The notes below the pieces were generated by a model, which was not told the DNA's origin, made no database searches, and worked only from the letters and a program-made list of their open reading frames with translations. 64,000 nt of DNA, from assembly GCA_937625935.1 (NCBI GenBank), contig OW569347.1, positions 1-64,000 of the forward strand, given 5' to 3'. The translations under genes were made by a program, and so were the position numbers. The stretch comes from Tetramitus jugosus. Taxonomy: Eukaryota > Protista > Heterolobosea. Shown here piece after piece: positions 1 through 24,394 of this stretch (the stretch's first letter is position 1; each line of letters starts with the position of its first letter).

Positions 1-753
1 CCAAACCCAACCCACACCCCAAACCCAAACCCCAAACCACACCCACCCAAACCCAACCCACACCCAAACCCAAACCAACCCCCACACCCCAACCCCCACA
101 CCCCACACCCAAACCCAAACCCAAACCCAAACCCAAACCCAAACCCAAACCCAAACCCAAACCCAAACCCAAACCCAAACCCAAACCCAAACCCAAACCC
201 AAACCCAAACCCAAACCCAAACCCAAACCCAAACCCAAACCCAAACCCAAACCCAAACCCAAACCCAAACCCAAACCCAAACCCAAACCCAAACCCAAAC
301 CCAAACCCAAACCCAAACCCAAACCCAAACCCAAACCCAAACCCAAACCCAAACCCAAACCCAAACCCAAACCCAAACCCAAACCCAAACCCAAACCCAA
401 ACCCAAACCCAAACCCAAACCCAAACCCAAACCCAAACCCAAACCCAAACCCAAACCCAAACCCAAACCCAAACCCAAACCCAAACCCAAACCCAAACCC
501 AAACCCAAACCCAAACCCAAACCCAAACCCAAACCCAAACCCAAACCCAAACCCAAACCCAAACCCAAACCCAAACCCAAACCCAAACCCAAACCCAAAC
601 CCAAACCCAAACCCAAACCCAAACCCAAACCCAAACCCAAACCCAAACCCAAACCCAAACCCAAACCCAAACCCAAACCCAAACCCAAACCCAAACCCAA
701 ACCCAAACCCAAACCCAAACCCAAACCCAAACCCAAACCCAAACCCAAACCCA
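1..753. repeat. Telomeric repeat (CCCAAA)n; G-rich strand TTTGGG runs toward the chromosome end
   Basis: Perfect CCCAAA hexamers from about 110 to 753, with variant units in the first ~110 nt; located at the window start. Confidence 0.97.
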
Positions 754-1694
754 AGTCAACTTCTTTCTCAAAAATCAAAAATTTCATCCAAATTCAAAAC
801 AGAATCCATCTTTCATCTAAAATTTGATCTAACAAGATAAATGGAAGCTAAAACCACTCAGTCCATTTCTATTTCCATCTTTTGACCTTCACTCCTTTGT
901 TTTTGTCGAAAACAGAAATCCTCTTATCAAAGGCTCAACATCTGAAAGGATTAGAGGCAATCAAGTGAGGCAACACACGTTTAATGAGTATTCATTTCTC
1001 TTTGTCTTCAGTTAGGACGGGTTGGGTCTGGGTATTCAACTCTGCATCCAAGGAAGTCTGAACAATAGAAATATATTTCTCTCATGAGCCAATCTCACTC
1101 CAAAATAGTATTTCCTGCAATATTTCTCAGTCAATTACGTTCATAGGTATGAATTTTTATCAACAAGCAAGATCTACTCTTATTTTATGAAGATTGCGTC
1201 TGGACTTTCAACTCTGCACTCATCTTACGAACTGAGAAGTTTAAATCTCATTCTGCCTGTCAAATATGTCAACATATCTCGTTCAAGAATGAAATTTTTC
1301 GTTCAGCATCAATAATTCGTTCCAAATTAGTTGATTTCCCCAATACAAGAGTGCTTCATATCATTCACAAGACAAAACTCCAATAATTTAGCTTATTCTT
1401 CCAAAATTATCTCATTCAACAGTGAAATATCTCTATTAGATCTATAAAATTTCTAAAACTGGTGAAGATCTTCATGTCAAGAGAATTTCAAGGCAATCAA
1501 AAGTCAGAACACCGAAATGCTACTCAATCCGCCAAAAATCAACAAAAAATGACAGAAATAACAGAATTAATGCTTCAAATGAATATGAGAGCTCTAAAAT
1601 TCCAATTTAAAATCTAAAAAATCGTTCTCTTATCATACGGTCCAGTGCTAATCTCATACTTTGCTGAAAAATTCTGACATAAAAAATCTGTTGT

Positions 1695-1790
1695 AGTTTT
1701 AATCCTGTTAAAGAGAAAATCTGTTAGATACAGCAGGGAGCGATCGTCTCTTCGAGACGATACAGTTTTAATCCTGTTAAATCCTGTTAG
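1695..1790. repeat. Subtelomeric 18-bp direct repeat flanking a perfect 8-bp hairpin
   Basis: AGTTTTAATCCTGTTAAA at 1695-1712 and 1764-1781; ATCGTCTC-TTC-GAGACGAT at 1743-1761; further ATC(C)TGTTA units nearby. Confidence 0.8.
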
Positions 1791-2054
1791 AGCTCGTTGA
1801 GATGACCTATTTGTACTGAAAAATTCCTTCGGGTTGGGTCTGGACTTATGACATGAACCCCAAACTCAAACTCAAAACTCTCCCAAAACCATATTTAGAC
1901 ACTCCTCTTCCATAAAAGGCAATATTTTGTCGGTTCAGAAGCGAATATAAAGATACTTCTCAAATTTCGGTAAAAATACCGCCACACTGTTCCGTACTGT
2001 CAGTTGAAGCCGTCAGTACTCTCAAAACTCAAAAATAAAAATCGGAATAATTTT

Positions 2055-2112
2055 AGGGTTGGGTATGGGTTTACCAAAACGCGGATGTAATACCAAACCC
2101 AAACCCAACCCT
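2055..2112. repeat. Inverted repeat made of telomere-like sequence
   Basis: AGGGTTGGGTATGGGTTT (2055-2072) versus AAACCCAAACCCAACCCT (2095-2112), 17/18 complementary, 22-nt spacer. Confidence 0.85.
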
Positions 2113-4534
2113 GATATCACAGTAGTGAATATCATCACTATCAGGTTTCTGTATGCGGTAAACGTATTCTGCACCAATAAACTTTCGAACGTATCCACTA
2201 TTATGGTATACAATACCCTTCTCAAGACGCTTGTTAAACTCTTGTACAGTTTTGGGAGCAGGAAGTGTTATATCACCGAGAGTCTCGTAATTTTCCTGCA
2301 ATCGTTCCACAACTGGGTCGATAACGTAGTCCAATCTTTGAATTACTCTGGAAGAAGCAGTTTCTTCCAGAAGTCTTATTTGACTCTCACAGATGTTGTT
2401 CGTGTTCCCAATACTGTTCATATCCAAGAGTCTAGATTCCGCTGTCCATGATTCGTGACAACTATGATACTTTTGATTGAAGTATTGCAAAAAGTTCTTG
2501 GTCTTCTCATCTTGTTTCTTACAGTACTTCTGAAACTGACCGTAGTACTTCAAGTATGTTTCACTATCTTTTGATATGCCCATGTAAACCAGATGTTTCG
2601 CGAGTTCTTTTTGAACACGTGATGGAAGCTTTGATAGATGTTTTTTCCATCTTTCTGAGATATGGAATCGACATAGCGTATAGGGGAGGTTGAGTCGACG
2701 CATAGCACTTAAGTTGGCTTTAGCGGCATCCATCATCCACAGTCGAAAGTTGAGATCCTTTCGCTTATTGTATTGGAGGAAGGTATCCAATATCTGCATT
2801 AATGTTTGGTGACTATTGTCATGAGCAATTGATATCGCCTGTATTACTCCTTTAAAATTGTCATCAATTGTGGCAATAACATTGATGGGGGAATGAAAAC
2901 TTGTAATCTTAAAAACTGAGTCTATGCCTTGAATCAGTTTCCCCTTACCGCTATTCAGGCCTATGTCGACCAGTTTCTCATTAAGGACAAGAACAACATA
3001 ATTTGTTTCGTTCATATCCATAAGTGTCATACCACTTGGAACGAGGACGACAATATCCTTCGTTCCATTCAACTTCGCTAATCTCAGCTTGAACGACAAG
3101 AAAGGATCTGAAGCTAATTGCTTTGACTTTTTCTCATATTGGATGATAGAGGTGACTTGTTTTCTAGAAAGTCCTGTAGCATGTGACAACCTTTTTCCAG
3201 TTGGCTTAAGTGTGTTGTAGGCCTCTACCACTTGTTCTCGTTTATCCGGTGTTATTCTGCGAGGGTCAATTGAGGGAATAAACGTACTATCATGTTGTCC
3301 TTTCGCATAGATAAAAGCTTGACTGGTATCATCGTTGTAAATAACGATTTTGCCTTTAGCAGAACAGTTTGTAAGGCACTTGACCTTCCCCACTCTCTTC
3401 AGAAACGACCCTTTGGATTCCAAACAAAGAGGATGCTTACAAAATACTGTTTCGTAAAACAAAATACTTTTTCCTGGAAGATCTGGGTTATTTGAATAGG
3501 GAAAGCGTTTCTTTAAACGCACATTCAATAATTTGTAGTTATGTTCCCTCAATATTGTTTCATTCACAACCTTACTTGATTCATTCATCTTCAGTTCGTG
3601 GCTTCCAATAATTGTTTGAAAGAAAGGGATTTCTTGGAGTTTTGACTCAATATAGCAAACATGACAACGAGCCACAAAAATGAATTCGCTTCCAAAGTCA
3701 GTATTGGTCCATGTACCGCTAGTTTCTGTGGGCTCTATTCTCAATTTTCTTTTTTCTAAGAATCGTACCTTAGGAATTGTCCTAAACACAGTTTGGGCAT
3801 CTGTCATCTCTTCTTCCTCTTGAAGTTCCTCGCCGCCGAAAACAGTTGTATCTTCTACTACTATCTGCTGTATATTTTGTCCGTCGATAGACTCTGTCCG
3901 ACCAGAATCTGAACCATTGCAATGATTCTCCGTCAGTAACATGGTTGATTCGTCTTCTGGAAGTTCAGCATCAGTTTCCAGATCGAGATGTCCAAGTTCT
4001 TGAGATAAATCCAGAACACTTGGCTCAACAAGGGTATCATCTTTCTCATAGTGGCTACGGTCTTCTTGTTCATTCTTGGAGATATGATCAATACATATTT
4101 GAATTTTCTCTTCTCTTGTTCCATATGAACTGAGGCCCAATGTGTGGCAGATATTTGCAATGTCATGAGTGTCAAATAACTCAATTCTTGAATGATCACG
4201 AAAATGATCCATCATCCTTGCGATAAGCACAATTTTTGCATTAGCTTTGTCGTTAAGTTAATTGTTGCGATATCCAAGTTTTTTATTCACTTGTTTAACC
4301 TGAGAATAAGATTACAATGGAAACTAGTGATACTAAAAGAATTACAATCAAAACAATTATAAATCCTACAACAAACTGCTCCATTTTCTGTCTGGCTTCA
4401 TCCATTTTCCTGAATTTTGCGAGTAGCTGCTCTTGTGATGTAACATCCCATAGTTCCATTTGTAACTGTTGTAGAGTAGTTATATCACTCTTCAGTTGAG
4501 CACCATATGCAGCTTGTTTTGTCAGTTCATCCAT
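2071..4534 (-). mobile_element. Mutator-like (MULE) DDE transposase gene with an N-terminal SAP-like motif; probably inactivated
   Basis: 719-aa ORF 2071-4230 with MULE core motifs (GIDSVFK..., WMMDAA...LCRFH...W, TNNICES). Upstream ORF 4295-4534 joins in frame through a GTAGGA...CTCAG intron (4300-4369), leaving one in-frame TAA (4258-4260). The C-terminus stops where a SWIM finger would start, at the telomere-like tract. Confidence 0.8.
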
Positions 4535-4624
4535 TGTTTTTATTGTAATTGCAACTGTCCCAAACTCAAATTCTCAATATAAAAAATGCAATGAATAATG
4601 ATTGTTGAATGAACAACAAAACAA

Positions 4625-6493
4625 ATGAAAGCAGCACGTCAAGCAGTTACCAGAATCATCAACAACAACGTTCATTAGCACAGAGAGCCTTTTAAGCTAT
4701 CCAGTGACTTTGTGGGAAAATATAAGAGCATCAAGCCTGAGTTTGGATTTAATGGTCTTGGAGAGATTGTATACAAACGTACATACTCTCGTTTGTTGGA
4801 GGATGGAGTAACTAATGAAGAATGATTTCAGACTGTTGAAAGAGTAGTTAATGGTACTATGTCAATGAGTAAGCGCTGGATGGTAAAGTCTGGATTGGGT
4901 TGGGATGAAACAGCAGCAGAAGAGATGGCATCAGAGCTCTATGACAGAATCTTCACTATGAAGTTTTTGCCACCGGGCAGAGGACTCTGGGCTATGGGCT
5001 CTCCTATCACTGAAGAGAAAGGTCTCTTTGCGAGTCTCAATAATTGTGCATTCGTGTCTACTGGAAGTATTGCAGATTGTGTAAGCAAGTGCTTTGAGTT
5101 CATGATGGATATGGCTATGCTTGGTGTTGGTGTTGGTTTTGATACTAAAGGAAAGGGTAAGATTGTTGTCAGAGGTACTTGTCACCCGCTATCTGGTAAT
5201 CTGGTTCATGTTGTTGAAGACACTCGTGAAGGATGGGTCAAGTCATTGAAACTATTAATTGATAGCTACTTTATAGAGAGCTATGGTGACGTACAGTTTG
5301 ATTATTCATTGATTAGAAAAGCAGGACTTCCAATCAAAGGATTTGGAGGTGTGTCCAGTGGTCCAGAGCATTTAAAGATGATGCATGAACAGATTAGACA
5401 GGTGTTGGACAAGAACAAGGGAACTACTATTACGGCAACTACCATTGTTGATCTGATGAATCTGGTAGGAAAGTGTGTTGTGTCAGGTAACGTTAGAAGG
5501 ACTGCTGAGATTTCGTTTGGTGATCCAGATGAAGAGTTCAAGGATCTGAAGAATTACAAGAAGAATCCTTATCGTTTGGACTTTGGCTATATCTCAAACA
5601 ATTCTGTATTTGCTACGCTTGGTATGGACTCTACAGATGCTGCACAAAGAGCCAGAACAAATGGAGAACCGGGGTTTGCTTGGTTAGAGAATATGCAAGC
5701 ATTCTCTCGTATGAATGGAGAACCAGATTGGAAGGATATCAAAGTAACAGGAGGGAACCCATGCCTTGAAGCAAGTATTTATTGTTCCTGTATATAGATT
5801 ACTAACAATTTCTTTAGCAAACACTTGAAAGCTATGAACTATGTTGTCTAGTAGAGACCTTTCCAGCTAAGCACGAGTCTCTGGAAGACTATCTGAAAAC
5901 ATTACGTTATGCTCTATTCTATGCCAAGACTGTTACACTTGGTACTACTCACTGGGAAGAGACAAACAGAGTATTGCTCAGAAACAGAAGAATTGGCTGT
6001 AGTATGACTGGTATTGCACAGTTTCTTGCCAAGTATAACATTGACAAGTTGAAGCAGTTCTGTACTGAAGGATATAATGCCATTCAGAAGTATGATGACG
6101 AGTTCTCAAAAATGTACTGTATTCCAAGAAGTATCAAGACTACATGTATCAAACCAAGTGGTACAGTCAGTCTGTTAGCAGGTGCTACACCGGGTATGCA
6201 TTATCCTAAGAGCAAATATTACATCAGAAGAATGCGTATTGCAACAAATTCTGATTTGACTTATAGACTGAAGAAACAAGGCTATCACGTAGAACAATTG
6301 ATTCTGGAAAGACAAGTAGAGAAGGAAGGAGTACCATTACTTGAAGAGAGAGAAGGTCCTCAGATTCCACATGCATTGAATTACTTCCAGTACATGCTCA
6401 AAGGAATTAGAGAGTCCAATCAATGACAGAGTAAGAAAAGGTATTGATCCAATGCCAGAGCTTTACTGTGATGGTGACAAATGTGTTTTGTAA
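4625..6493 (+). pseudogene. nrdJ: Adenosylcobalamin-dependent (class II, monomeric RTPR/NrdJ-type) ribonucleotide reductase pseudogene
   Basis: Motifs GFNGLGEIVYKRTYSR, FLPPGRGLW, LNNCAF, GVGVGFD, SGNVRRTAEI, NPCLEQ..ESYELCCLVE, TTCIKPSGTVSLLAGATPGMH and C-terminal YCDGDKC. GC-AG intron 5771-5817 with TACTAAC. In-frame TAG (4676) and TGA (4823). Apparent deletion and frameshift after about 6300. Confidence 0.92.
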
Positions 6494-6516
6494 CTACAGA
6501 AAGCATTAAACAGAGC

Positions 6517-7371
6517 TCATTTCTTGTTCTTCTTCTTTCTGTTAAACACAGCAAAGTCGTAGACAGGATTGTAGCTCCATTCGCTTCCACCTACTTCATT
6601 GAGGTCTGGTTTGTTGACCGCTGCGATTAGAGCACATCCATATTTGTTAACACTCGTCTTCAACTGATCTATCTTTGTCAAATCATCTTTGATATCGTCA
6701 ATAGATCCTCCTTCTCGGTACACTTTTAGTTCTACTGCATTTGTTGTAGGTTTTTGGTTTTCAAATGAGACTATCTCAAGATCCACACGTTGGAGCTTCA
6801 TTTTCACAGTAAGCTTGTCTTTCCATTCTTGGCGATGTCCAATGTCCACATACATGGTTTCTCTTCTAACCATACCTGGATACGGCTTCAATTCTTTCCC
6901 CCAAGTATTGCATATTGCTTCAGGTATCTCTGGCAAGCTAATGTAAAAAGTCTTCAATGCGTTAAAAACTACATCCTCAGATAGATCACTCGTTATCTCT
7001 ATTACATTGTTAAAAGTAGTCATCGCATCAAGTAACGACTCTCGTTGTTCTGTCTCGTCTTTCAACTGTTTAATTTCATTCCACTCTTCACATTGACTCT
7101 TTACAATTTGATTTAGCTTTTGTACAGCATGTACCACAGCTTCCTTATCTGAATTTAGAGTCTTGGAGAACAAAAACCCAACTTTTTTATAAGTGCTTGT
7201 TTTCTCGTTTTTGCTCAAATTTAAATAACCCAAGTGGTCTTGAAGATAATAACTCATTTCGTCTCTCAAGAAGTGCTCAAATCCGTAGTCATCGTGTATT
7301 CTTCTCTTGTACGCTGGTTTCTGATTGATATCTAAAAAAAATTTTTCAAACAAGTCCTCAACAACTGTCAT
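6517..7371 (-). CDS. Putative PD-(D/E)xK restriction-endonuclease-fold nuclease
   Basis: Intact 284-aa ORF; N-terminal helix FEHFLRDEM and C-terminal RVDLEI...AVELKV...IKDDLTKI pattern. Confidence 0.5.
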   Translation of the reverse strand: MTVVEDLFEKFFLDINQKPAYKRRIHDDYGFEHFLRDEMSYYLQDHLGYLNLSKNEKTSTYKKVGFLFSKTLNSDKEAVVHAVQKLNQIVKSQCEEWNEIKQLKDETEQRESLLDAMTTFNNVIEITSDLSEDVVFNALKTFYISLPEIPEAICNTWGKELKPYPGMVRRETMYVDIGHRQEWKDKLTVKMKLQRVDLEIVSFENQKPTTNAVELKVYREGGSIDDIKDDLTKIDQLKTSVNKYGCALIAAVNKPDLNEVGGSEWSYNPVYDFAVFNRKKKNKK

Positions 7372-7482
7372 TTTTTTCTTGTTGTTCTTTGACTAGTTTG
7401 ATATGGTTGGTGTGTAACGTTTTGTTGTGTGTTTGTTTTTCTTGTGGGAGGAGTTCCTCTTTCTTCCAGATTTCCATCAACA

Positions 7483-7516
7483 ACAGAGGTTTATTTTTAA
7501 TCGACATCCGACTGGT
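7483..7516. promoter_or_regulatory. Shared intergenic motif, copy 1 (core TATTTTTAATCGACATCCG)
   Basis: 19-bp core 7492-7510 is identical to 13592-13610; both copies lie between divergent genes. Confidence 0.65.
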
Positions 7517-7591
7517 TACAAAGAATTATTGTAAGACAACACCCACTCAAACGTCAAGTTGAGGATAAGAACGGTAACCGAAGAAAAAAAC

Positions 7592-8135
7592 ATGTCAACA
7601 GACACACCACAGTTCCCACCTGCAACAATATAAAAGTGTGACTTACTACCACCATGGCATCGTGGTTGAAGAAAATGAAGTGGTTCACTTTGTTGGAGAT
7701 ATGAACACGTTGGATAGCAAGGGGGAAGCTGAAGTTAAATGTACACCTCTGCAAGTGTTCATTGGAGAAAATACTATCGGTGCAAGTGTCGAAGTTGAAC
7801 AGTACAATGAAGAAGTACTTACAACACAACAAACAGTTTCTATTGCAAAGTTTTTGTGCTTTGTTTCACTCAAAGGTCAGTATCATTTGTTGGAGAGAAA
7901 CTGCGAACATGTTGCAACATTTTGCAAAACTCTAAAGGTAAGAAGCAAGCAGGTAGAACAAGCACAAGAAGCTCTTGAAATGTTTGTCCAACAGATGATT
8001 CAAGCGTTCTCAAGATTGTCAGACTGGGTGGAAAACAACCCTGCAGAGGCTCTTGTATTACTAGGGGTTTTGGTTCCAATTATTACTTTTGGAATTGCAA
8101 AGTACTTTGAATCTTGTTCTCGACGCAATGAATGA
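7592..8135 (+). pseudogene. LRAT/NlpC-P60 permuted (NC-domain) acyltransferase or phospholipase-like gene with C-terminal TM; 5' end damaged
   Basis: YYHHGIVV...VVHF and YHLLERNCEHVATFCK motifs; the frame from ATG 7592 has a TAA and a frameshift before the ORF at 7638. Confidence 0.75.
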
Positions 8136-8234
8136 AACACAGTACTTCACAGCTGTAGTAAATTCAAAACAGATTAAATAATGATTTGAACGTTCATTCC
8201 ATACACCACAACAAACAATTCACAAAACAAACAA

Positions 8235-8601
8235 ATGAACAACGAAGACAAGATCAACCACAATGCCAAGCTTCTGGGTATAGAGAAAGTTGTTACCATT
8301 ACGATCACTGAAATCATGTGGTCATTGTAAATGTGAAACGTACTGTTCATCAGAGTGTGAAGTGGCTCATATGGATGTCCATAAAGATGTTTGTTCTGAT
8401 CTGGCTGACTCAAGAAACACAAGAGAGTTTCTGATGCATGTAGAGGTTATGCTAAGAAACAAGAGCATTGGTATCCATTCATATGATCAGGTCCTGTTGA
8501 AGCGTTTCCACCGGTTCCCTACGTTTCTTAATCATCTGTACAAGGAACAGTACAATACTTTGGGGGACATCATCAAGAACAGAATGTTAATTGAACAGTA
8601 A
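8235..8601 (+). pseudogene. MYND-type zinc finger protein, frameshifted at the 5' end
   Basis: LKSCGHCKCETYCSSECEVAHMDVHKDVC; the ATG at about 8235 is in a different frame. Confidence 0.65.
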
Positions 8602-11151
8602 TAAAACATCAGATAATACATCAGTAACACAAAAATTTGTGAAGAAAACTGTATATACAACTATCAGTGAAAAATTACACAAAGTATTGAATTGTCTATC
8701 ATAGTAGGGATTAAGTGTACAGGGTCTGTTTAGATATGGAGCAATAAGCTGTTGATCAATCGTATTTGCTCTCAGACCTTTCCTGAAAGCAGCTTCCAGA
8801 TGATTCATAGTCAACTCTTCATTGAACCTTTTAACTCTCATTCTTTTCTTATCTCTTGTTACTATGTCTCCTGTTTTTTTAATAGTCTTACCGCACAATG
8901 TCTTGTACAATGATAGAAGCAGAGTGAACAACTCTGAGAATGAGCATACATCTTCTTTGGAGTTTCTGTAGTACACAAGCTTTTTCATGTACCAAATCTG
9001 TTGCTCGCGAGATCCTTTAACCACTCTGTTATCTTCGGGAATAAGTTTGATATCTGGATATTGGAATCTCATTAGTCCTAATTCTTCTTCGATAGCAAAG
9101 CATGATAGCATTCTCGCATGGTCGTTCTGTAGTCTCATTTCAGTAAAGTCCTTAGAATCTACATTGTTGTTAGCGACATAGGCATCCTTCGTCATGAACA
9201 TGTAAATCGTGTTGAGGTGTTTCTCTATTTCAGTATCCAACATCTGGATGATGTCCATTCTTTGAATTGATCGCAAGAGGGTTCAATCTAAAATACTCTA
9301 TCCTTTCACTAATGATTTTGCTCTTCTTCCATTTTTCGTTACTCTTATTCTTCTCCTTCTCTGTAAACCTATCCACAATATCGATGTAATACATATCATT
9401 CCAAAGCAGTTGTTGATCAACAAGAGTTTCCAGTTTTGCTCTTTTCATCTTCTTCTTTAGACCTTCGTATTTCTTCTCTGATAAATCTACTTCCTCTATT
9501 TGATAGCCCTTCAATGATAATAGATCAATAAGCCCGTCCTTAGGGTTATTTCTACTGATGTTCAGGTTTCGTAGATAATAACAGTATAGATGAGTAAACA
9601 GACTCTCCTTGGAGATCTTGAAGCACCCATAAAAGTCCATCTCTTGGGTTATCAATTCTGATGGGAAGAGTTCTGTAAAGTTTTGAGTCCTCTTCTACGT
9701 GGATTTCAATCTTGGAATAATCTGTACAATAGTTACATTCTTTTCTACCCTGTGACCACAATTTGACAACTGTTGCATCTCTTGGTCTTGATATCTGTTG
9801 CATCTGTTCCTGTATATTGATTGTACAGTTCTTATAGAATGCATATACATACTCAAACTTGGACACGTCATCATTGACCCCATAAGTAATACACGGAGAA
9901 CACAAAACATATTGTACCTTAACCCAATACAGCCCAATATTTTGTAGTTCTGTCCTGTCACCAATATCTCTTGTATAAATCTTGAACTTGGCTAATCCAC
10001 ATTTCTGTTGCAATACTCCTTTGATCGTAACAACCAATTCTGCTGTATCCGAGCAGATAAACATTCTCTTACCAGCTTTAACCATCTTTATCAGATCGTC
10101 TAGTAGACTGTACTTACAGGGAAAAATGATTACTTGTTTCCCAGTAGCAGGCTGTACAGTGTTGATAATAAATCGAGTCTCTACCTTTTCACAATACTTT
10201 CGCAATAGACAGAGAGACAAATCAGTAATATCTGCATCCATTGCAATGATACGTTTTGCGTTAGACAGTACATTCATCAAGGCACTCACACAAGCTTTTC
10301 TGTTCTTGACAGATTCAGCAAACATGTGTTTAACTGTAGAGTCACATTCATCAAGGACAACAATATCATATAGATGGATATCTTGAACAAGATACAATGA
10401 ATCAAAACTGACGCATAATCTATCAGCTTTGATTCTAGACGATAGACACGACCTCCTTGAGATCCAAGTAACTCTGAAAACCAAGATCTTTAAATCTTCC
10501 AAATTGGTCATGTACAAGACTGATTCTACTAGAGATAGACAATACTCTCGCATCTGGTTGTTGTTCTAGCAACTGAATTAGTAGTTGAGTCTTTCCAGTA
10601 CCTGTAGCGCTCTTGAGAATGAGATGCCTGGTAGTGATAGTAGGTAATAATTCAGATACATATGGTATATGAACAGGGATTATGGTAAAGGCATCAGTCT
10701 GATCGATCTTGAAGTCTGTTTTAGTACCGATTCGTTCGTCTGGGTGTCTGATATAGTTATAGACTGCCGAGTTCTTGTAGAAGGTGACTTTGTAGAGTAA
10801 TTCTTGTTTAGGTATATGCCTGAAAGGGTGGTCACGCCTGATTCTTATTGCTGTACCACCAACAATACCCATGTGTTCCTCAGTACCGCATGCTTGAGCT
10901 AACTCTTCTAGCAGTTGCTCGCGTTCTTCTGAAATACTTCTAAAGGTTTGTAATGTTTGTTGGATGTTGATATCGACAGAGGAGCACAGTGCGTCATCGT
11001 TGATGTATTCTTCGATGCCATCTGCTGACATGAGAGTATGCAATTCAAGGAGTGCCTCAGGGTGGAGCTTCTTAGACCTAGGTTCATCAGGATGTTGTTG
11101 TTCTGCTTTCCTTTTTAACATGTCGTTGTGTTGTTCGTGAGTGGGGTTCAA
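8587..11151 (-). pseudogene. Replication origin-binding protein (herpesvirus UL9/large DNA virus-like SF2 helicase), split by about 3 frameshifts
   Basis: Consecutive overlapping ORFs 10435-11151, 9552-10553, 9230-9655 and 8587-9276 with LKSATGTGKT, SISSRISLV, LCVSFDSL, VVLDECDS, IAMDADI, SPCITYGVND and QQISRPR. Confidence 0.8.
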
Positions 11152-11182
11152 TAGAAATTAATGTGACACCAACAAAAAATAA

Positions 11183-11678
11183 ATGCCGTACAAAACACTC
11201 AAAGTCTTGAATAGTGGCTATCAAGCACAATGTGCTGTTGATGGAGCAGGGTTTCGACAGCAAGACCATGTAACTCTCATTCACCAGTTCGAGGAGGAGG
11301 GTTACAAACTGATAAATTCATTTGGTTATTGTTATGGTCTCTATAGCCAATCCACATAACCCTAGCCAAACTGGAACCTACGATGTTTACGTGTTCTACA
11401 AACCAAAGGAGCTCAAAGTTGAAGAGATGGAACAACTTCAGCAGGCAAGTGGTCTTGAAGAGAGATTACGTATGAAGGCAGAGCAATTGCTTGCACGTGA
11501 GAGAGAAGTGGCTCAGAAGGAGGCTGAAGTGAAGAAGAAGACAGACGAGTTAGCTGCTGTGTTGAACAGATTGAAACAAAGAGGTAGTAAATGCCAGAGC
11601 TTTACTGTGACGGAGACAAGTGTGTCTTGTGATAAATACTACATCATAAAGCATCTCGACCCTTTTATTTCTCAATAG
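11183..11678 (+). pseudogene. Small frameshifted gene with a coiled-coil tail, overlapped by a duplicated RNR C-terminal fragment
   Basis: The frame from ATG about 11183 (MPYKTLK...GYKLINSF) shifts into ORF 11322-11678; 11591-11632 encodes MPELYCDGDKCVL* in another frame. Confidence 0.45.
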
Positions 11679-12609
11679 ACCTCTACGCGTAAATATTGTT
11701 GTTTGTGCAGTTTTGGCAGGATTCGTGCAACGATCCGGAAATTCCTTGCACCCACCGGAATGTTGACTCGATCTTGGATGTATTGAGCAAAAATAACACC
11801 GGAATACAATAAAAATCCAATTGTGCAACTACTGCAGCATTATTTAACCAGAAAGTTGTTGGACACAACTTCAAACAACAAGATTTTGAAGAAGACCAGC
11901 GAGGAATTGGAGTTAGAAGACAGTGATCCAGACAAAGATAAATTCCCTAACTCCTGGATTATACTTGGAGACAGTGCCTATGTGGGCGGAAAGAAGTTGT
12001 TGAGGACTGTTTCAGTGACAAAGAGGAAGCTCCAAAGAATTAACGATGAACGATTGTATAATCAAGCCATATCATGTGATCGGGTGAAAATTTTTACGGG
12101 AGGATGTTGAATTTGTTTGGCGTCATGAGAATGACATACAGATATGATCATCCCAGTACGATAATTTGTTTAAGATATGTGCGGCACTTACTAACTGGCA
12201 TATGTTGAAAATGCCTCTGAAAGAAGAAGATGGCGGATACCACAAGAGTAAAATAATAGAATTGATTGACAAGGCGAAGCAGAGAGAACAGACTCTCCGG
12301 AAATCTCGTGAGAAGTACCAGAAGAAGCAGAAGAACAGAAAACGTTGTCGAAGTCTGTTGGAAGAAATCACCAGTTGACAGACACAACAGACCTGGTTGC
12401 CCAGTCGGTTGATCGGTGCGAGGCAAATCACCTTTTGTAAGCTCTTGATGTTGTTGGGCAACCTCCTAGACAGGGGCGCCCCTGTTACAACTATTGCGCA
12501 ACGAGTTTCTCTTTTTTTGCCACAAGTAATTTTGGCAGTGAGAAAATACCGGGAAAATAAAGCCAACTGACAAGAAACCAATTCAACTCACAACTACGCG
12601 TAAAGGTCT
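11677..12609 (+). mobile_element. Internally deleted PIF/Harbinger-group (PHIS, DDE_Tnp_4-like) DNA transposon
   Basis: 15-bp TIRs AGACCTCTACGCGTA / TACGCGTAAAGGTCT (1 mismatch); AAT TSD at 11674-11676 and 12610-12612; transposase remnant WIILGDSAYVG...NQAISCDRVKI...FKICAALTNWH with frameshifts. Confidence 0.85.
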
Positions 12610-12611
12610 AA

Positions 12612-13527
12612 TCACTCACTTTTGATGATACCCAAATACTTTTGCTTCTGATCCTCATCAGGGGTCAATATGCCGTACCAACGACCCGCCACTGTTTTCT
12701 TATTACAGTATCCAATTAGCGCTTTCAGCAGCATATCTGCACAATCCAAATCATCATCTGAAAGCCTCATACGCTCTTCGACATCCACTTTTTCTTCAAA
12801 CACTAAGCATAACTCATTATTTTCATATTATACTTTAAGACCCAGAATTTTTCGAGCAGCGGGTATGAAATGAGCATATAGATCCTTACGTAGCAATACC
12901 ATCTTCTCTCTGATGTCCTTTTTTGCTTTGGTATCCTCTAATGTTTTTGGATATTTTTGGTTATAGCCGGTATATACTCTAGATATCTGTTCTTTTTCTG
13001 TTGCTGTTGTAAACGCATTGAGTAACGCTTCTGGATTAGTGTTGTAAGCAAATTACATGAGCCGCAAACGCATTGCGCATAACGCTGACAACATTCAAAG
13101 CTTGTGTTGTCAAACCGACTTCAGTTAATTCTTGTACAAACTGAGAATCTAGTAAAAGCGAGTTTACCTTTTCTTTTGAGATGAATGTATCGAAAACATG
13201 GTATAACTGTAAACAAGCAATTCGATGAAAAGACTTGAAAAACAGTTTGGGATCACTGGTGTCAGAAAGAAGTGTTACTAAATACTAGGTTGTATTAGCC
13301 AAGGCTTGTTTCGAATGGGCAATTGCGAAATAACTATAATGCTGCTTTTTCATCTGCTTCTCTTTGTCCTTCAGTTCCTGTATCAACATGTCAGCATATC
13401 GCAGTTGCTCTTCGTTGTTTACAGATTGTCCACGCCATAATTTCACATTGGCACTGGAAAACGATGGGTTTTGGAGGATAGTATTAATAACTTGTTGTTG
13501 GTCACTCGAGAGGTTGTGTGTTGCCAT
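12612..13527 (-). pseudogene. Interrupted ~300-codon gene with a HEPN-like RNxxxAH motif
   Basis: The frame from ATG 13527 reads through TAG 13285-13287 to VMRNAFAAH (13083-13057); a frameshift near 13050 and an in-frame TAA (12828-12830) lead into ORF 12612-12803. Confidence 0.45.
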
Positions 13528-13582
13528 TGTTTGTTGTTTGTTGTTTGTGTTGAAGAGGACTCCTTTTATATCTATACCCATC

Positions 13583-13616
13583 ACAGAAGTCTATTTTTAA
13601 TCGACATCCGTCTAGT
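13583..13616. promoter_or_regulatory. Shared intergenic motif, copy 2
   Basis: ACAGAAGTCTATTTTTAATCGACATCCGTCTAGT versus ACAGAGGTTTATTTTTAATCGACATCCGACTGGT at 7483-7516. Confidence 0.65.
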
Positions 13617-13737
13617 GGTCTTTCAATGATAGGCCTGTGAGTCTTCCAATCTCGGACGTGGGTAGAGCGAAAAATGGTGAAAACGTTGTTGTAAAGGGAA
13701 AACTCAGCTGAAAATAACTCATCCAAAGAAAAAAAAG

Positions 13738-14783
13738 ATGGATGAACAATACGCCAAACTATGGGAAGAACTTGACTTCAACCGCAAGAAGTATTGGAAC
13801 GAAAGAGACTCAGCTTGGGCAAAGCATAACACGACTGTAGTCGGTACCACAGCTGCGAAAGTTGTAGGTAATGCTTTAACTGGTGCAGGTGTGCTTGGCT
13901 CTTTATTCCTCAAATCAGTAAGTCCATGGAGTGCTCTATTCGTTGCTTCGTGTGCTGTCACAACTGCGTTCTTTACTTTTTTGAGTGAAGAAGACCACGA
14001 AGCGAAGAGTATTCAATGTAACCAAGTTGCAAATCAATATGATGCACTGCGTCGTGAAGTTCAATTTACTGCTTGGCGTCTGCACAAATACAAGGACGAC
14101 GAGGTTCGTAAGAAGTTCCAAAACTTCAACAAATAGATGTCAGAAATCAATGGTCCTGTTCCATCATCAGAAGCAGAGGAAATGGCGAAGAAATCAATCG
14201 CTAAAAGTCATACTGAGTACCGTACTGGCAAAATCATGAGTAGTCTTCCTGATAAAGAGATTATTCAAAAAGAGATGGATAATTTGATTGAGGATGCTGA
14301 GTGCAGCGAGGAACTTTATGAATTTAACACAAACACATTGAAATGGAATGCTTCTTTTCCCCTCGCGTACTTACCATTGAATCTATTATAAGTTTATCAC
14401 AGGTACAGCCAGAGTTTCTGCCATTTTTTTCAATTTGGCAACAGCAGGATCTGTCTACGCTCAATTCACTAATGTTTTGACGCCTATGACCAAATTATAC
14501 TGAATTCTGTGCTATTGTAGCAAATGCAATTTCACACAGAAGATATGATTCAGATGCTGCAAGAAGTGATGCTACCAGGAGAGAATACAAGAGTTTTATT
14601 TTCAAGGCGAATTCCTTTGATCAATCACAAGACTTCAATGAAGCATCCAATATCGTAAGAGAGCTTCAAAAAGAATTGGTGCAGATTAACACTCGTAGTC
14701 CACCTCTGTACTATGAAGATACATGGGAAAGAGTGCAAGAAAAGAAGCGACTGGAAAGAGAGCAAGAAAAGAAGTCATCATAG
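13738..14783 (+). pseudogene. Tandem SLATT-like (2TM) domain protein, interrupted
   Basis: Two TM helices then EAKSIQCNQVANQYDALRRE; reads through TAG 14134-14136 into INGPVPSSEAEEMAKKSI. A second frameshifted unit ends AARSDATRREYKSF...QINTRSPPLYYEDTW. Confidence 0.5.
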
Positions 14784-15589
14784 TTTCCCATTGATTGTGT
14801 AGTGAATAAAATTAGTTTACAAAAAAACACATTCAACAAAACAAGATGAAACTGCAAGATGTGTAGAACAAATTTCTCAGACCCCCTCCCTCGGGGGCCG
14901 TAAGAAATAATATCTGGACGCTCCCAATAGAGAATGATAAAAGCAGACATAATTGTTGTCCTAGATAAAATTTTGATCTTTGTTGAACAGAATCATATGA
15001 TTGCTGAACCTACCTGAAGCATCTCGAACCATTTGATACACAAAAAGTAGATGTTTCTTCGATGATTGAATGAATGCTGTAAAAATCGATACGAAATCTT
15101 CAGGTTGACTCTTGAAGTATGCGATCATCACTGTTAAGAAGCATTGGAACAACAGAGCAAGTTGCCATTTGATTGATATCACGAATCTTTTGGCATTATC
15201 TCTATTTGTCAGAGCATTTCGATAGCTCTTTGTCGTGCTTTCTTCCGGGATTTGGAACTAGGGTAGGGTCCCCACATTTATCACATAGCATATCCAAAGT
15301 GGAGTTATCATATTCTCTTTCTTGAATCATGCGATTAGCTTTCTCGATAATATGGTTGAGTTCTTGATTCCCAGTCCTTTTGTTTCGTGTTGATATTAAA
15401 GGCCGAGAGACTTCGAATTTTCTCCCGAATCTTCATCATCCTGCTCTACTTTCTCTTTCTTTTAACTCTATCATTCTCTACTTGATATTGAGTGCAATCC
15501 TAATACACACAATTGTTTGAAAAGCCTCTTCCAAGTATTCAAGTATTCGAACAAATGAATTGCAGTGTGGATCGTATAATATTCTTGTC

Positions 15590-16826
15590 ACCCTATTGTA
15601 CTGACAGAGTACAAACGTTTATGTTGATTGTTATGTATGATCCAGTAAACAGTGAATAGTAACTCAATAGAAGGAGGAGGATGGATGTGTGGTGTGGTGA
15701 GTGAACTCGGTAAGGGTTCAGACACAGATAGAAGAGTATAGCAACCAAATAATTGAGGTGAGAAAGTGATTTTCGTTTGCTAGGGTTTTGTCAGCTTGAT
15801 CGATCTTCAGTCAACCGACTAGAACTTGCTCCGTAAAAATAGGTTGTTTACAAAGATTCAGTGCAACTTTGCCCAGAGCGATTTTATCTCCCTATCTCAT
15901 TGTGGTATTGTTGATAGTTGGTTCAAAAACGATAGCACAGTATGGAAATTTCCACGGTTGGAATCATTGGATTCCTCGTCATTTGAACTAAAAGACTCAC
16001 CTATCATCAATTCTAGTAGCACCATAATAGATTCCTCTCTCATGATCGAAAGCACCCAGAGCTTCAACTACACCAGGCAACTCAGATTTAAATTCATTCA
16101 GTTTTCCAGTTTTCAAATCCAGTTTTGCAAAAAGTACATTGTTAGCATGTTGAGTGCAAGCGTAGAGAATATTGGAATGACCATCGACTGCCAAACCTGT
16201 CACACGTGTTGGTACTGGATAAGTTTTCTGCAATTTACGATGAGTCATATTGAACTGAGAAATCGCACCATTTTCAACACTTGTCGTGTAATACATATGA
16301 TTAATGGCATCATAAGCTGTTCTGTGGAAACGTCCTTGAAAGTCCAACAACAAATTAGGTTTGCCATTCTCAATATCGAACTCAACGAATGCATATTTAT
16401 CACCACCTCCTCTACCTACTATTCCAATCAATTTGTTTAAACAAATGGAGATCTGCAATTTGTAACTGGTTGACAATAGGAATCGATTTGATCACAGTCA
16501 GACTATCAACATCGATTGAATAAATGTTTTCGTTGTCTCTTGCGTAAATGGTACGTGTAGCCTCATCCAGACTCATGCCAATAGTGTTTGCCAAATTGCC
16601 ATTGGTTTTAATGAATGAACCAGTCTCGATATCCACTGGCATTAAGATATTCTGTAGATATTCCCTATTTCTAGCAAACAAGAATGAGCCAACACTTTCC
16701 TTATTATTCTTACTTTGTCCCTTGATACCACCACTACGAATTCTTGCCCCATTTGCTGAGTGCATCAACAATACAAGCACCACAGAGAACAAGATGAAAC
16801 TGTTAAAGAGATTTTGAAGCTCTACA
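15590..16826 (-). pseudogene. Secreted beta-propeller-like protein, frameshifted and degenerate
   Basis: ORFs 16412-16792 (signal peptide) and 15997-16476 join by a frameshift near 16440; the downstream segment has in-frame stops; distal boundary approximate. Confidence 0.45.
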
Positions 16827-20197: not shown

Positions 20198-23100
20198 TCA
20201 ATTGGGATCTGTAGCTTCGCCCAAAAGAAGTAAAACACCATCGAAAGTGGGTCTCAAGGAAGGATCTGTATGCCAACAAGCAACCATCACCTTAGTTAAT
20301 GACTTCATAATTCTGGTTGGCACAGTGTGCAATGTATGAGAGCACCAAGCTTCTAGCTTGCTTTCATCGAAGGGTATCCTGTCGATTTTGCATGTGCTTA
20401 TATCAGCTTTGCTGTCAACGAATGGGATCGATGGTCTTTTTCCGTTCAAGATTTCATGAGCCAGCAGCAGCATGTTACAATGATCCCGAGCGAATGGAAC
20501 AACTTCAAACAATACCTGATACATCACCATTGCGAAGGAATAAACATCAACTTGAGGTCCATATTGGACGTTATTTCGACTGATAACCTCAGGTGCCATA
20601 TACTATGTTTACTGAAATGTTAAGAAATGAACAAACAAAAAGACAATAAAGCAATAATACGAACCTGGAATGTTCCTACAAATCCTGTGAGTTTACTCTC
20701 ACGGTCCACACTCGTCGATAAGCCAAAGTCACTAAATGGAGACAAGTCGAGAACTATGTGAGTAATTATGTGTTAACAAAGATTTCATCAAACAATCACA
20801 TACCCAATTTTTACATTCATATCCTCATCCAATAGTATATTTTGTGGCTATGAGAGATTTGTGTGTTAGTACATTGTTGACTGCTGATACACTTGAAATT
20901 GTTACAGTGTGACTCTTCATCATACCTTCAAATCCCTATGTATGATAGGAGGGTTATGAGTGTGCAAATATGCCATTCCTTTACATATTTGTTTCAATAT
21001 AACCACTTTTCTATCCATGCTCAATGTAAACTTTCCGAGCAAATGGCCGTCCAATGATCCCCTGTCAAGCAATTCAGTGATGATGAAGTTGAACCCCTCA
21101 TGCACACATATTCCAAGAAACCACAAAATGTTTGAGCTACGAAAAGTGATAACAAAAGTTTTGAATCAGTTTGAATATCATCAAAAATAATGGTTCTCAA
21201 CCTACATACTTTTTCAATGATATTAGTAATTGAGCTTCAGCGATGAACTCTGCTGAATTTTCTTCATACTGAAGTTTCATTTTCTTAATGGCGACGGGTA
21301 TATTGGTTCTCCACATTCCCCTATGTTCAAGAGAGTTAGCACATGCACATTAAGTAACGGAAGGATCCTAATTCATACCTGTACACGACTCCTGCAGCAC
21401 CTTCGCTTATCTTTGAGATTATTTTTATATCTTCGTAATTAATCATCCATTTCTTTGCTTGATTGGCAGGACTGAGTTCAAACTCGTTTTCGAGCAATAT
21501 CTGTTGCATTTGACTCTGCTCTACGCTCTTAATTCGGAGAATATGACGCAAATAAATCAGTAAACCAATACTAACTAGCAAAGCTAATCCAAGCACCACA
21601 ACTGCTGTTATAGAGAGAGAAAGATACAAGGCTTTCCTGTCCTTCTTCTTTACTCTAGGAAATCGTGGAGTTTTGAAAACTAATAGTTCAGATGAATCCA
21701 GTAAAGAATTGCTAGAGGTTACACCGAGAACAGTGTTATTGCTCAAGAAGGATACAGCTGAGAAACGGGCACCATTTGATTGAAACTTGCTGACATCTCC
21801 AGTTTCCAAATCATATTGAGCAATAACGGTACCACAGGTTACGTAGAAATACTTTGTTGATTCATCCATAAACAAATTTCTACATGAACAACGACAGGTG
21901 TTAAAATTAGAACCAAATTGAATCATACAAATATGACACATACTTGCAGAGATAATTCAATTTAAAATCCAGTAATTGTATCTTCTTTGTTTGCCTGTTG
22001 AACTTGTAAAGGTTGTTCGCATACTCTCCTTGTTCGTTCCTAAAACTAAATAGTAGGTAAATGTCTGCTTTTTGGATGTAAGTTGGAACAATGAGGTTAC
22101 GTTTCTCAGCACCGAGATCTCCGAGACTCAATACCTCTGTTCGCATCTTTGTTTGCAAATTATACTCTACTATAAAATCTAGAAAAATACTGTAATTAGT
22201 ATGTGTATGAAGAATCAAACTTCCAAATGACATACATTGGTTATTCTCCTTTGCCAAAAGACCAATTAAGTCGTGATTATTATCAAAAAAGCCTAAAGAA
22301 CTGAGTATTTGTGTTTGAGACGCCTCAAAACTCCAAGTTCTCATGCTCGCGTTATGAATGTTCGAGTAAGGATACTCAATAATTTCGTATTGCCTCAAGG
22401 AGGCTTCTGGGTTGACTTCTGAAAAAAGAAGTGTGAATAAATGTGAATATCAATACTCGTCAAATTGTTACATACGAATTGCACTATAGAAGGCACTCTT
22501 CTTCAGAGAGTCTAAGCTAAACACAAATTCCACTTTTTCCAGCTGCGGATCGTCAGTAAAAAGAGCAGAGAAAGAACAAGAAGAGAGTGAAGAAATCAAC
22601 ATACATAATACTTTGAGAGACACTTAATATTAATTTGACAAAACTGGCTAGAAAAATACGACCCCGATGTACCAAGTACAGGCCCCACGCTGAAATAGAA
22701 ACTACCTCCCTTTGTATGCAATAGTTGAATTGTGTCTCCAATGACTACTAGTTCAATTGCTCTTGAATTTTGGGTGACCATGTGATTGTTCGATACTGAT
22801 ATCTCAACATCCGTGATGAAACCAACGCTAATGTCATCAGCATGAAATGAGCTAATATATCGAGCGGAAATTAATTGATCTGAACTTGACAACACAATAA
22901 AATCTCTGACAGCTTCAGGAGCTGTAGGCCTAAGTCATGTGTCAATGATGATCTTACATATTAATCAATTCGATAATAATATACATACAAATTCTGAATT
23001 GCAAGCGCCTCTCCAGACATCACGGATATCGAACTGTATTCACTCCAGTATTGCGCCTTCACGCCTTGGTCGCTTTCGTCTCTTGGAGAAAAAGTAACAA

Positions 23101-24394
23101 ATCCGTTTTCACCCAATGGTGAGATTGTCCTATAACTTCGATCTACGACAGTAGAAATAGATTCTTGTTGAGATATGGAAGAATTGGTAAACGTTCGTGT
23201 TCTTGTATCATACTTTCGAATTACCCACCATTCTTCGCTCTCATTCTTTTGGTGATCTGCCAAAAGAATAAATGATCCCTCTCGATTTGAACTGGCTCCC
23301 ACATAACCAACATCAGGATCTGATGCATTGTAAACTAACGTAAGACGCTCATTAGAATGAAGATAATGGAGAATAGTTGTGGGAGCTTGGTATCCGCGAG
23401 CATCAACATGAGCCAGCACTACAACTAAATAATATTGACCATCAATCAATGTTCCGATGAGGTTGATAGGCTTTACATCAATAGCCGACACTGGAGTTTG
23501 TGTCACAGAATACTTTGCAGTCGTCAGATCCAAACAAAATACTCGCATAAAATAGTCAAATTCTCGATAGTACAAGTACAAAAAGTTCTTGTAATTAGAA
23601 AGTTGAATATTTGTCACAGTCTTCATTTCAAGAACATAAAAGAATTGACCAAATTGTGTGGACATGAACTCCAGATTGACATTCAATGTAGAAACCAGAA
23701 ATTTGCCCACACACACGATTGAAATGCCAGTATTACTTTCTATTAATTGCACATAGCTCATTGAGTTTGAATAAGAAAGAGGCGCTTCTACAACAGTGCC
23801 AAAATGATCCTCATACACTCGAATTTTCATCATCTTACTATTGGTTTGGTCTGGTCCTTTTTCCGATGAAACTGGAAAAGGCACCACAATCAAATACTTT
23901 TCCTCATCGGAAACATGAGCCATTTTCATTGTTCTTACCTGACGATATCCCTCAGAACTACTAATATCAGATGTTGTAATCAACTCGATCGAGTTACTTC
24001 CTCCATTTGTCGTATGTCGCCACAACATAATTCTGAGACCACCATCGTCTCCAGCTGATGAAACAAACAATGTTTGATTCGAATTGGAGAACGCAATCTC
24101 AACATGAGAAACACTTTCTATTCCTCTCATTGCTTTTCGATTGGCCAATTCAAAGGTTGGAGAAGCTTTTTCATCTGCTACCCCATTTGCAAGCAAAGAT
24201 AATACCTTGTCTCGAGCACTGTTGCTCTTGTTGAAAGTCACATGGAGATTTTCATCATGATAGATGGAACGAAAATCAAGAGGGTTACTCAAGGTTGGCT
24301 CGCATTGAATAACACCGAGAAGGAGTGCGTATGAGAGAATAAAACCCAGCAACAACCTCCATGAATGAGCAGAAGAAAGTTCTTGAATACCCAT
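20198..24394 (-). CDS. Multi-exon receptor-like tyrosine-kinase-like (TKL) protein kinase
   Basis: Signal peptide, large beta-rich ectodomain, TM helix (LSLSITAVVVLGLALLVSIGLLIYL), kinase motifs SEGAAGVVY, VAIKK, IIHRDLK, DFG and YMAPEV across GT-AG introns. Confidence 0.85.

Follow-up and report, generated by a model that had tools for sequence, protein, structure and literature searches.

Paired ribonucleotide reductase ends and a shared motif bound unrelated genes in a subtelomeric island: most likely a slot for variable cargo in a host-adapted mobile family not described before

The 64-kb stretch of eukaryotic DNA analysed here (the window, 64,000 nucleotides at its full length) carries a decayed subtelomeric island in which the 19-nucleotide word TATTTTTAATCGACATCCG stands twice on the plus strand, at 7492-7510 and 13592-13610, as the first-pass annotation of the sequence had stated. 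The feature is real and larger than first reported, and it most likely represents a slot for exchangeable cargo in a mobile family that is adapted to its host and has not been described. Each of the two units begins at the tail of a class II (B12) ribonucleotide reductase (RNR), which lay beyond the unit as first seen, and runs from this RNR end through a convergent cargo gene and the motif into a divergent gene for a membrane protein. The anchors are paired in the same order and at near-equal spacing, the RNR tails differ synonymously, the slot genes are unrelated, several RNR ends exist, and the island has decayed. The best reading is of a mobile family with the class II RNR and a replication helicase of superfamily 2 (SF2); that the region consists of fused fragments of two long-diverged copies of such a multicopy family, with the motif as a promoter element of the slot, is given an about even probability. 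The features of the two units are the following.

4625..6493 (+): monomeric class II (B12) RNR pseudogene (Pfam, RTPR, tblastn map)
6451..6493 (+): RNR tail copy 1 (MPELYCDGDKCVL*), left anchor of unit 1 (repeat search)
6517..7371 (-): slot 1 cargo, intact open reading frame (ORF) of 284 residues, PD-(D/E)xK-like nuclease as a lead (motif, Atlas)
7420..7516 (no strand): homologous spacer block, copy 1, about 70 nucleotides of weak homology followed by the 34-mer at 7483-7516
7592..8135 (+): LRAT/NlpC-P60-like gene with a C-terminal hydrophobic segment (Pfam, frames)
11590..11632 (+): RNR tail copy 2, orphan, left anchor of unit 2 (repeat search)
11677..12609 (+): Harbinger/PIF-like transposon remnant in unit 2 (short terminal inverted repeats, AAT on both sides)
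12613..13527 (-): slot 2 cargo, pseudogene of about 300 codons, HEPN-like by motif (frames)
13529..13616 (no strand): homologous spacer block, copy 2, weak homology and the 34-mer at 13583-13616
13738..14783 (+): SLATT-like gene with two transmembrane segments (2TM) (NCBIfam, PADLOC, Atlas)

The RNR tails form a second direct repeat, missed in the first-pass annotation, that pairs 6451-6493 with 11590-11632 (41 nucleotides at 90%) and encodes the last 14 codons of the class II RNR. Tail and motif lie 1041 bp apart in unit 1 and 2002 bp apart in unit 2, and the latter distance becomes 1066 bp after subtraction of 936 bp, which comprise the Harbinger-like insertion and one AAT; the transposon, whose remnant matches DDE_Tnp_4 at E 0.004, below the cut-off, is a later insertion. 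Because the second repeat has the same order and spacing in both units (1041 vs 1066 bp), the reading of the region as a fusion is supported. The small gene at 11183 runs into tail 2 without a stop codon, and this abutment on an orphan tail marks a fusion junction; upstream of tail 2, no homology was found (187 of 300 shuffles reach the score). Between the two tails there are four synonymous and no non-synonymous codon differences, and the stop codons differ; the proportion of synonymous differences (pS) is 0.57 on 7 sites, and four random changes would all be synonymous with a chance of about 0.001. Since all the tail differences are synonymous, tail 2 is the end of another long-diverged coding paralogue, and a recent local duplication, named in the first-pass annotation as a finding that would overturn its reading, is excluded.

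The RNR itself is matched by the Pfam profiles RNR_Alpha (8e-13) and RNR-II_ins_dom (4e-12) and by RTPR (9e-44). It has an in-frame stop near 4823 and internal deletions near its 3' end, and it keeps one GC-AG intron at 5771-5818. Relative to the window copy, a paralogue seen in runs X4 and X5 is longer by 50 letters at 5044/5045 and by 45 at 5500/5501; these insertions are probably introns without a counterpart in the window copy, and the RNR paralogues may differ by intron loss or gain.

The multiplicity of the RNR end is seen in run X1, which may be the source of this DNA: one contig of 5745 nucleotides carries unit 1 unchanged together with the second RNR tail, and four more contigs carry the RNR end with 2-12 differences and unlike flanks on both sides, which makes at least six RNR ends in five contigs. 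In run X6, a groundwater metagenome of a different study, all six matching contigs are RNR ends with various flanks. A third study supplies a contig of organism B (run X8, record 23) that holds pieces of the MYND-finger and helicase genes in the same order with a gap of about 1 kb. Metagenome contigs also span 9375-10696 (helicase) and 13688-14350 (SLATT gene), and run X5 covers the RNR, the helicase and SLATT. No second contig of X1 was found over motif 1, and motif 2 is uncovered in that run, which leaves room for further copies. The putative turnover of the slot cargo is drawn from two cases. The joints 13545-7371 (X3) and 2111-14907 (X5) were dropped as lying in low-complexity or repeat sequence, and the missing cover of the nuclease gene in X5 and X6, and of most of the HEPN-like gene in X5, was not used as evidence.

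The 19-mer has no further match with up to three mismatches in the 64 kb; the mean number of matches in shuffled sequence is 0.04, and none of 100 shuffles reaches two. It extends to 34 nucleotides at 88% identity (7483-7516 and 13583-13616), the best other site of the window agreeing at 23 of 34 positions. Weaker similarity had been claimed for both sides: it held on the left, where about 70 nucleotides can be aligned as far as the start codon of the slot 2 gene (3 of 300 shuffles score as high), and failed on the right, where the homology stops 6 nucleotides past the 19-mer (30 of 300 shuffles reach the score). The motif is better conserved than the sequence on either side of it, and better than the paired RNR tails are at their synonymous sites. 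In simulations of a 150-nucleotide spacer, an exact run of 19 arose in 0.08% of cases at a neutral identity of 55%, in 1.3% at 65% and in 4.4% at 70%, and conservation by function may be proposed for the motif with moderate confidence.

Two of the four divergent spacers of the island, the one preceding the RNR and the one that separates the helicase from the small gene, are without the motif; therefore, it is no promoter for the whole element, and what fits of the earlier proposal of an element-specific promoter is a conserved cis element beside interchangeable cargo. As judged from sequence, the motif is likely a conserved, putative promoter element of the variable slot. It is assigned to the leftward gene because the homology is one-sided, and it would serve that gene or perhaps both.

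Elsewhere, the 19-mer gave no match in viral contigs, and a 28-mer of the motif gave none in prokaryote genomes. Four matches of the 19-mer in metagenome contigs (with 4 of the 19 outside-core positions fixed by the query) and 18 matches of its 15-mer core in viral contigs agree at 3-11 of 19 positions outside the core, as compared with 15 of 19 for the window copies; these 22 matches were taken as chance in view of the poor agreement beyond the core, and none of them encodes an island protein. The contigs of run X4 cover 6219-7375, 7523-8576 and 13743-14380, with none over 7414-7507 (motif 1) and with an A-run at 15854; they look like divergent transcripts and were set aside as evidence, because contigs cannot show starts or levels.

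The divergent gene layout around both motif copies, as described earlier, was recovered with spacers of 220 and 210 nucleotides, and the genes in the two slots proved unrelated, their similarity being reached by 39 of 100 shuffles for DNA and by 63, 225 and 276 of 300 for protein in the three frames. The right flanks and the slot interiors are not alignable, with anchors that are 88-90% alike. The label of PD-(D/E)xK nuclease given to the slot 1 gene stands as a lead: the D...ELK motif, read by eye as RVDLEI...AVELK, and the nearest named Atlas clusters, all of the PD-(D/E)xK type at a similarity of only 0.77, fit it, and no homologue or family was found for the 284-residue ORF in the Pfam, NCBIfam, phage-family profile and protein searches. 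The single-sequence AlphaFold model of this ORF has a mean confidence (pLDDT) of 39. The slot 2 gene has two stops, one frameshift and two RxxxxxH (Rx5H) motifs. The motif of HEPN RNases is Rx4-6H; the earlier HEPN-like label stands by motif, with no HEPN profile matched in Pfam at E up to 1. The two Rx5H motifs suggest a tandem HEPN arrangement with an active site that may lie within one chain.

To the right of motif 1, the LRAT assignment was upheld by Pfam LRAT at 1.3e-12 (48.5 bits vs a cut-off of 24.3), with YYHHG, VVHF and NCEH present; the gene is frameshifted directly after its start codon, and an LRAT search in phages gave nothing. To the right of motif 2, the SLATT-like 2TM gene called earlier is supported, below the curated cut-offs, by NCBIfam SLATT_4 at 7e-8 (13738-14133) and 3e-4 (14490-14780) and by SLATT_1 at 8e-4, as well as by the PADLOC 2TM effector at 5e-6. 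It apparently holds two SLATT modules in tandem and is broken by stops and frameshifts. Its Atlas similarities of 0.90-0.92 lead to clusters in which 50-88% of the recorded members are viral; where a phylum is recorded, as it is for a few members, it is most often Nucleocytoviricota, Uroviricota or Preplasmiviricota.

Seven of the eight island genes are broken, and the 284-residue ORF is the sole intact one, an exception that is not significant when the lesions are roughly counted by hand (about 2 per kb, a chance of roughly 1 in 6). The transposon inside unit 2 and the telomere at 1-754 had no mention in the first-pass annotation. Contigs of run X3, another sample of the same study, span the frameshifts of the LRAT, small and HEPN-like genes and the first SLATT stop without difference, and because of this agreement these lesions are real in the DNA.

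Under the preferred reading, selection would have preserved the RNR end and the promoter block in copies of the element, and the gene between these anchors would have been exchanged by homologous or illegitimate recombination at the anchors, as in phage satellite defence hotspots. Two copies would then have become tandem neighbours in the subtelomere and been joined by a deletion reaching from the small gene at 11183 into the final codons of the second RNR, and the Harbinger-like transposon would have been inserted afterwards, with the island decaying. In conflicts with viruses or other elements, a putative role would fall to the cargo genes (nuclease, HEPN-like, SLATT, LRAT).

Several results weigh against such a history. 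The RNR carries a spliceosomal intron and may be a host gene, and a quick tree, made from 24 of 129 RNR proteins and 34 of 68 eligible viral loci, places it nearest to the metagenome proteins P0151 and P0258 and a Diphylleia protein (SH-aLRT, the approximate likelihood ratio support, 91), in a nearest group that is weakly supported, holds one viral row and stands apart from most viral NrdJ rows. None of 78 viral NrdJ loci has an island gene or the motif. Both the GC content at third codon positions (0.34-0.40 vs 0.37-0.45) and the leaders, which are rich in CA, resemble those of the host, and pS was obtained from only 7 synonymous sites. Two slots are all that was seen, with no third motif-bearing copy found. 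The six-frame Pfam scan covered 88 segments of at least 58 residues from 755-16100 (the remaining 4 of 92 segments were scanned as ORFs) and was accompanied by a scan of 19 ORFs; no capsid, packaging ATPase, polymerase, integrase or recombinase was found in these 88 segments and 19 ORFs, the scan for major and minor capsid proteins and ATPase being one that could miss highly diverged or deleted genes, and no matched termini were found in the window. As to the motif, a run of 19 is unremarkable at 75% neutral identity (13.5%), and 30 of 34 matches are so already at 70% (19%); its distances to the start codons differ (120/81 vs 64/127 nucleotides), and a TATA-like word is present in spacer 2 and absent from spacer 1.

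The main rival, unlikely as it is judged, takes the two units for old host segmental duplicates: the RNR would be a host gene family whose paralogous neighbourhoods were shuffled into the subtelomere without any mobile family, the unrelated foreign genes would have been gained independently, and the motif would be a host regulatory site or a lucky remnant. The loose grouping of the intron-bearing RNR with a eukaryotic protein, the host-like third positions and leaders, the existence of eukaryotic monomeric NrdJ (accessible text of PMC3019208) and the want of mobility genes in the island speak for it. However, at least six RNR ends in five X1 contigs are many for a housekeeping enzyme, the neighbours include a replicon-type helicase and SLATT, and in the remaining 49 kb of the window the motif stands beside no host gene (best site 23 of 34). 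A recent local duplication that left two copies and a motif without function is hardly probable at all: the two known copies do both lie in the window, but the tails differ synonymously throughout and the slot interiors and right flanks cannot be aligned between anchors that are 88-90% alike.

The two other uses proposed earlier for the motif, as a recombination or capture site and as a site for the origin-binding protein encoded between its copies, were poorly supported. In the former, which is quite improbable, the 34-mer would be an integron-like, site-specific recombination site for cargo cassettes. Its length of 34 bp resembles that of recombinase sites, unrelated genes lie on both sides, and the homology ends abruptly 6 nucleotides to the right of the 19-mer; on the left, however, it fades gradually over 70 nucleotides, neither 34-mer contains an inverted repeat of 4 or more nucleotides or folds more than weakly, the 88 segments and 19 ORFs of the island include no recombinase, and five genes in both orientations lie between the motif copies. 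More doubtful still is the motif as a binding site or origin for the helicase. The gene does match Herpes_ori_bp, "replication origin binding" phage families and a plasmid Rep family, and an A/T run adjoins a word richer in G/C; the match, however, stays within the N-terminal helicase portion of the Pfam model, each of the two sites stands singly and in direct orientation, at a distance of 6.1 kb from the other and neither clustered nor inverted, and the paired RNR tail accounts for the repetition without the helicase.

Beyond the two slots, three more genes belong to the island.

8235..8601 (+): MYND-finger gene, frameshifted near its start (zf-MYND 3e-6)
8587..11121 (-): SF2 replication helicase (Herpes_ori_bp / CyRepA1-like) in four frameshifted pieces (profiles, frames)
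11183..11589 (+): small gene with a coiled coil, frameshifted, without a stop before the RNR tail (frames)

The helicase is matched by Herpes_ori_bp at 1e-9, by CyRepA1 at 1e-34 (below its cut-off) and by phage replication families at 2e-18. Its Herpes_ori_bp match is to model positions 51-192 of 820, and that of the intact relative P0002 to 4-267; no primase domain was detected in the helicase or in the window. The helicase has 2209 relatives, among which six of the ten scanned contain an AEP, PriCT_2, Prim-Pol, Toprim or DnaG zinc-ribbon domain; AEP-PriCT-SF2 proteins and proteins with an AEP_C962R domain are included, and by domain content the intact relatives may be classed as mobile-type replicases. 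The closest database protein, P0001 (88%), is itself frameshifted, the search for the helicase among longer proteins gave nothing, and searches of the viral loci with the helicase, the window RNR, P0005 and P0002 gave nothing either. The small gene (11183-11589) has no family below E 0.001 in the Pfam scans, and the Rfam scan was empty.

Among the systems known from other organisms, the defence hotspots of P2 phages and P4 satellites are alike in having about 1 kb or more between conserved anchors with differing nuclease- or SLATT-type cargo; according to the accessible text of PMC9122126, they span 1-5 kb between conserved genes, and recombination at the anchors has been proposed for them. 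Unrelated cargo between two conserved anchors is found in both of the two units here. Unlike these hotspots, the island is eukaryotic, subtelomeric and decayed, with the RNR end and a non-coding motif as anchors, and thousands of cases stand against two, with a defence role of the island cargo that is only predicted.

Polinton-like viruses carry SLATT and primase-SF2 fusions (main text of PMC12220804), and tandem accretion followed by deletion has been proposed for their mosaicism (accessible text of 10.64898/2026.10.13.758929). Their replicase is pPolB or a primase fused to an SF3 or SF2 helicase. The island resembles their endogenous forms in SLATT, in an SF2 helicase akin to the primase-helicase type, in degraded copies and, under the reading proposed here, in tandem integration with deletion. 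In contrast to them, no capsid, ATPase, integrase or tyrosine recombinase and no paired terminal inverted repeats are found in the island, no primase is detectable in its helicase, and it has an intron-bearing class II RNR, the word "ribonucleotide" being absent from the main text of PMC12220804. With the decayed Nucleocytoviricota insertions of amoebae, as far as the accessible text of PMC11702301 describes them, the island shares pseudogenised virus-like genes and helicase relatives with AEP_C962R; unlike such giant-virus insertions, it has no GC shift and possesses host-like leaders and an intron, and the core genes of these viruses (the major capsid protein, PolB, A32 ATPase, D5 and VLTF3) were not found in the Pfam scans of 755-16100. 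Eukaryotic monomeric class II RNRs (accessible text of PMC3019208) share the monomeric-type insertion domain and the RTPR match, whereas the island RNR is multicopy, has unlike 3' neighbours and is a pseudogene here.

An integron-like cassette array is not recognisable in the island, which has no recombinase, no dyad symmetry, and two sites with five genes between them. The UL9-type system has a C-terminal sequence-specific DNA-binding domain and clustered inverted boxes; in the island, the Pfam matches end at position 192 (267 in P0002) of 820, and the sites are single and direct. No description of an RNR-anchored element of such a kind was listed in the literature search, which covered few subscription papers.

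Should the family prove real, a eukaryotic mobile element would join the phages as a carrier of anchor-bounded defence hotspots, and new protist antiviral genes may be found by reading between each RNR end and the motif. At present, there is one decayed locus with two slots, which gives a lead to a family and no working system. A wider proposal, regarded as rather doubtful, is that heterolobosean-like amoebae carry an undescribed capsid-less family of mobile replicons with a captured intron-bearing class II RNR, an SF2 Rep helicase and a prokaryote-style defence hotspot that swaps nuclease, HEPN and SLATT effectors between the RNR end and a conserved promoter; if this were true, antiviral genes of eukaryotes could be collected by means of these two anchors.

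The genomic setting of the island is given by the end of the window.

1..754 (no strand): telomeric array (CCAAAC)n = (TTTGGG)n (repeat count)

The window starts with 126 copies of CCAAAC, and TTTGGG has been described as a candidate telomere repeat of Naegleria gruberi (accessible text of PMC3622300); the host is a protist, likely a heterolobosean. The island genes are tightly packed, with the majority of gaps at 15-220 nucleotides. Past about 16 kb, the ORFs look like ordinary eukaryotic genes with the standard code, as labelled by reading the ORF list, which was the form of analysis applied beyond 16.1 kb.

Next to the telomere, the segment 755-2050 is represented by many variant contigs in X3 and is likely a subtelomeric repeat common to chromosome ends. 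It is followed at 2050-4256 (minus strand) by a MULE-like transposase ORF of 719 residues (Pfam MULE 0.008, below the cut-off), which enters telomere-like repeats at about 2095-2110, where a metagenome contig carries on with other sequence; this suggests an old break healed by telomere addition. The break point presumably lies within an apparent SWIM finger. At 4295-4534 (minus strand), an ORF of 79 residues with a C-terminal hydrophobic segment stands divergent from the RNR and has no convincing family in the profile scans. On the other side of the island, 14866-14925 is the end, about 60 nucleotides long, of a repeated element that also occurs in organism B with many unlike flanks; this end, similar to a terminal inverted repeat, has no partner within the window. 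We take it to resemble a terminal repeat of the Zator/Sola type, and a larger element with the island inside it may have its right end here. Farther on, the ORF list shows at 20198-24394 (minus strand) what reads as a receptor-kinase-like gene in fragments, its extracellular part being long, and an ORF of 388 residues lies at 56986-58152 (minus strand) in a GC-richer patch (0.47), which we presume, as an impression, to resemble the ORF1 of a long interspersed nuclear element (LINE) or a gag-type protein.

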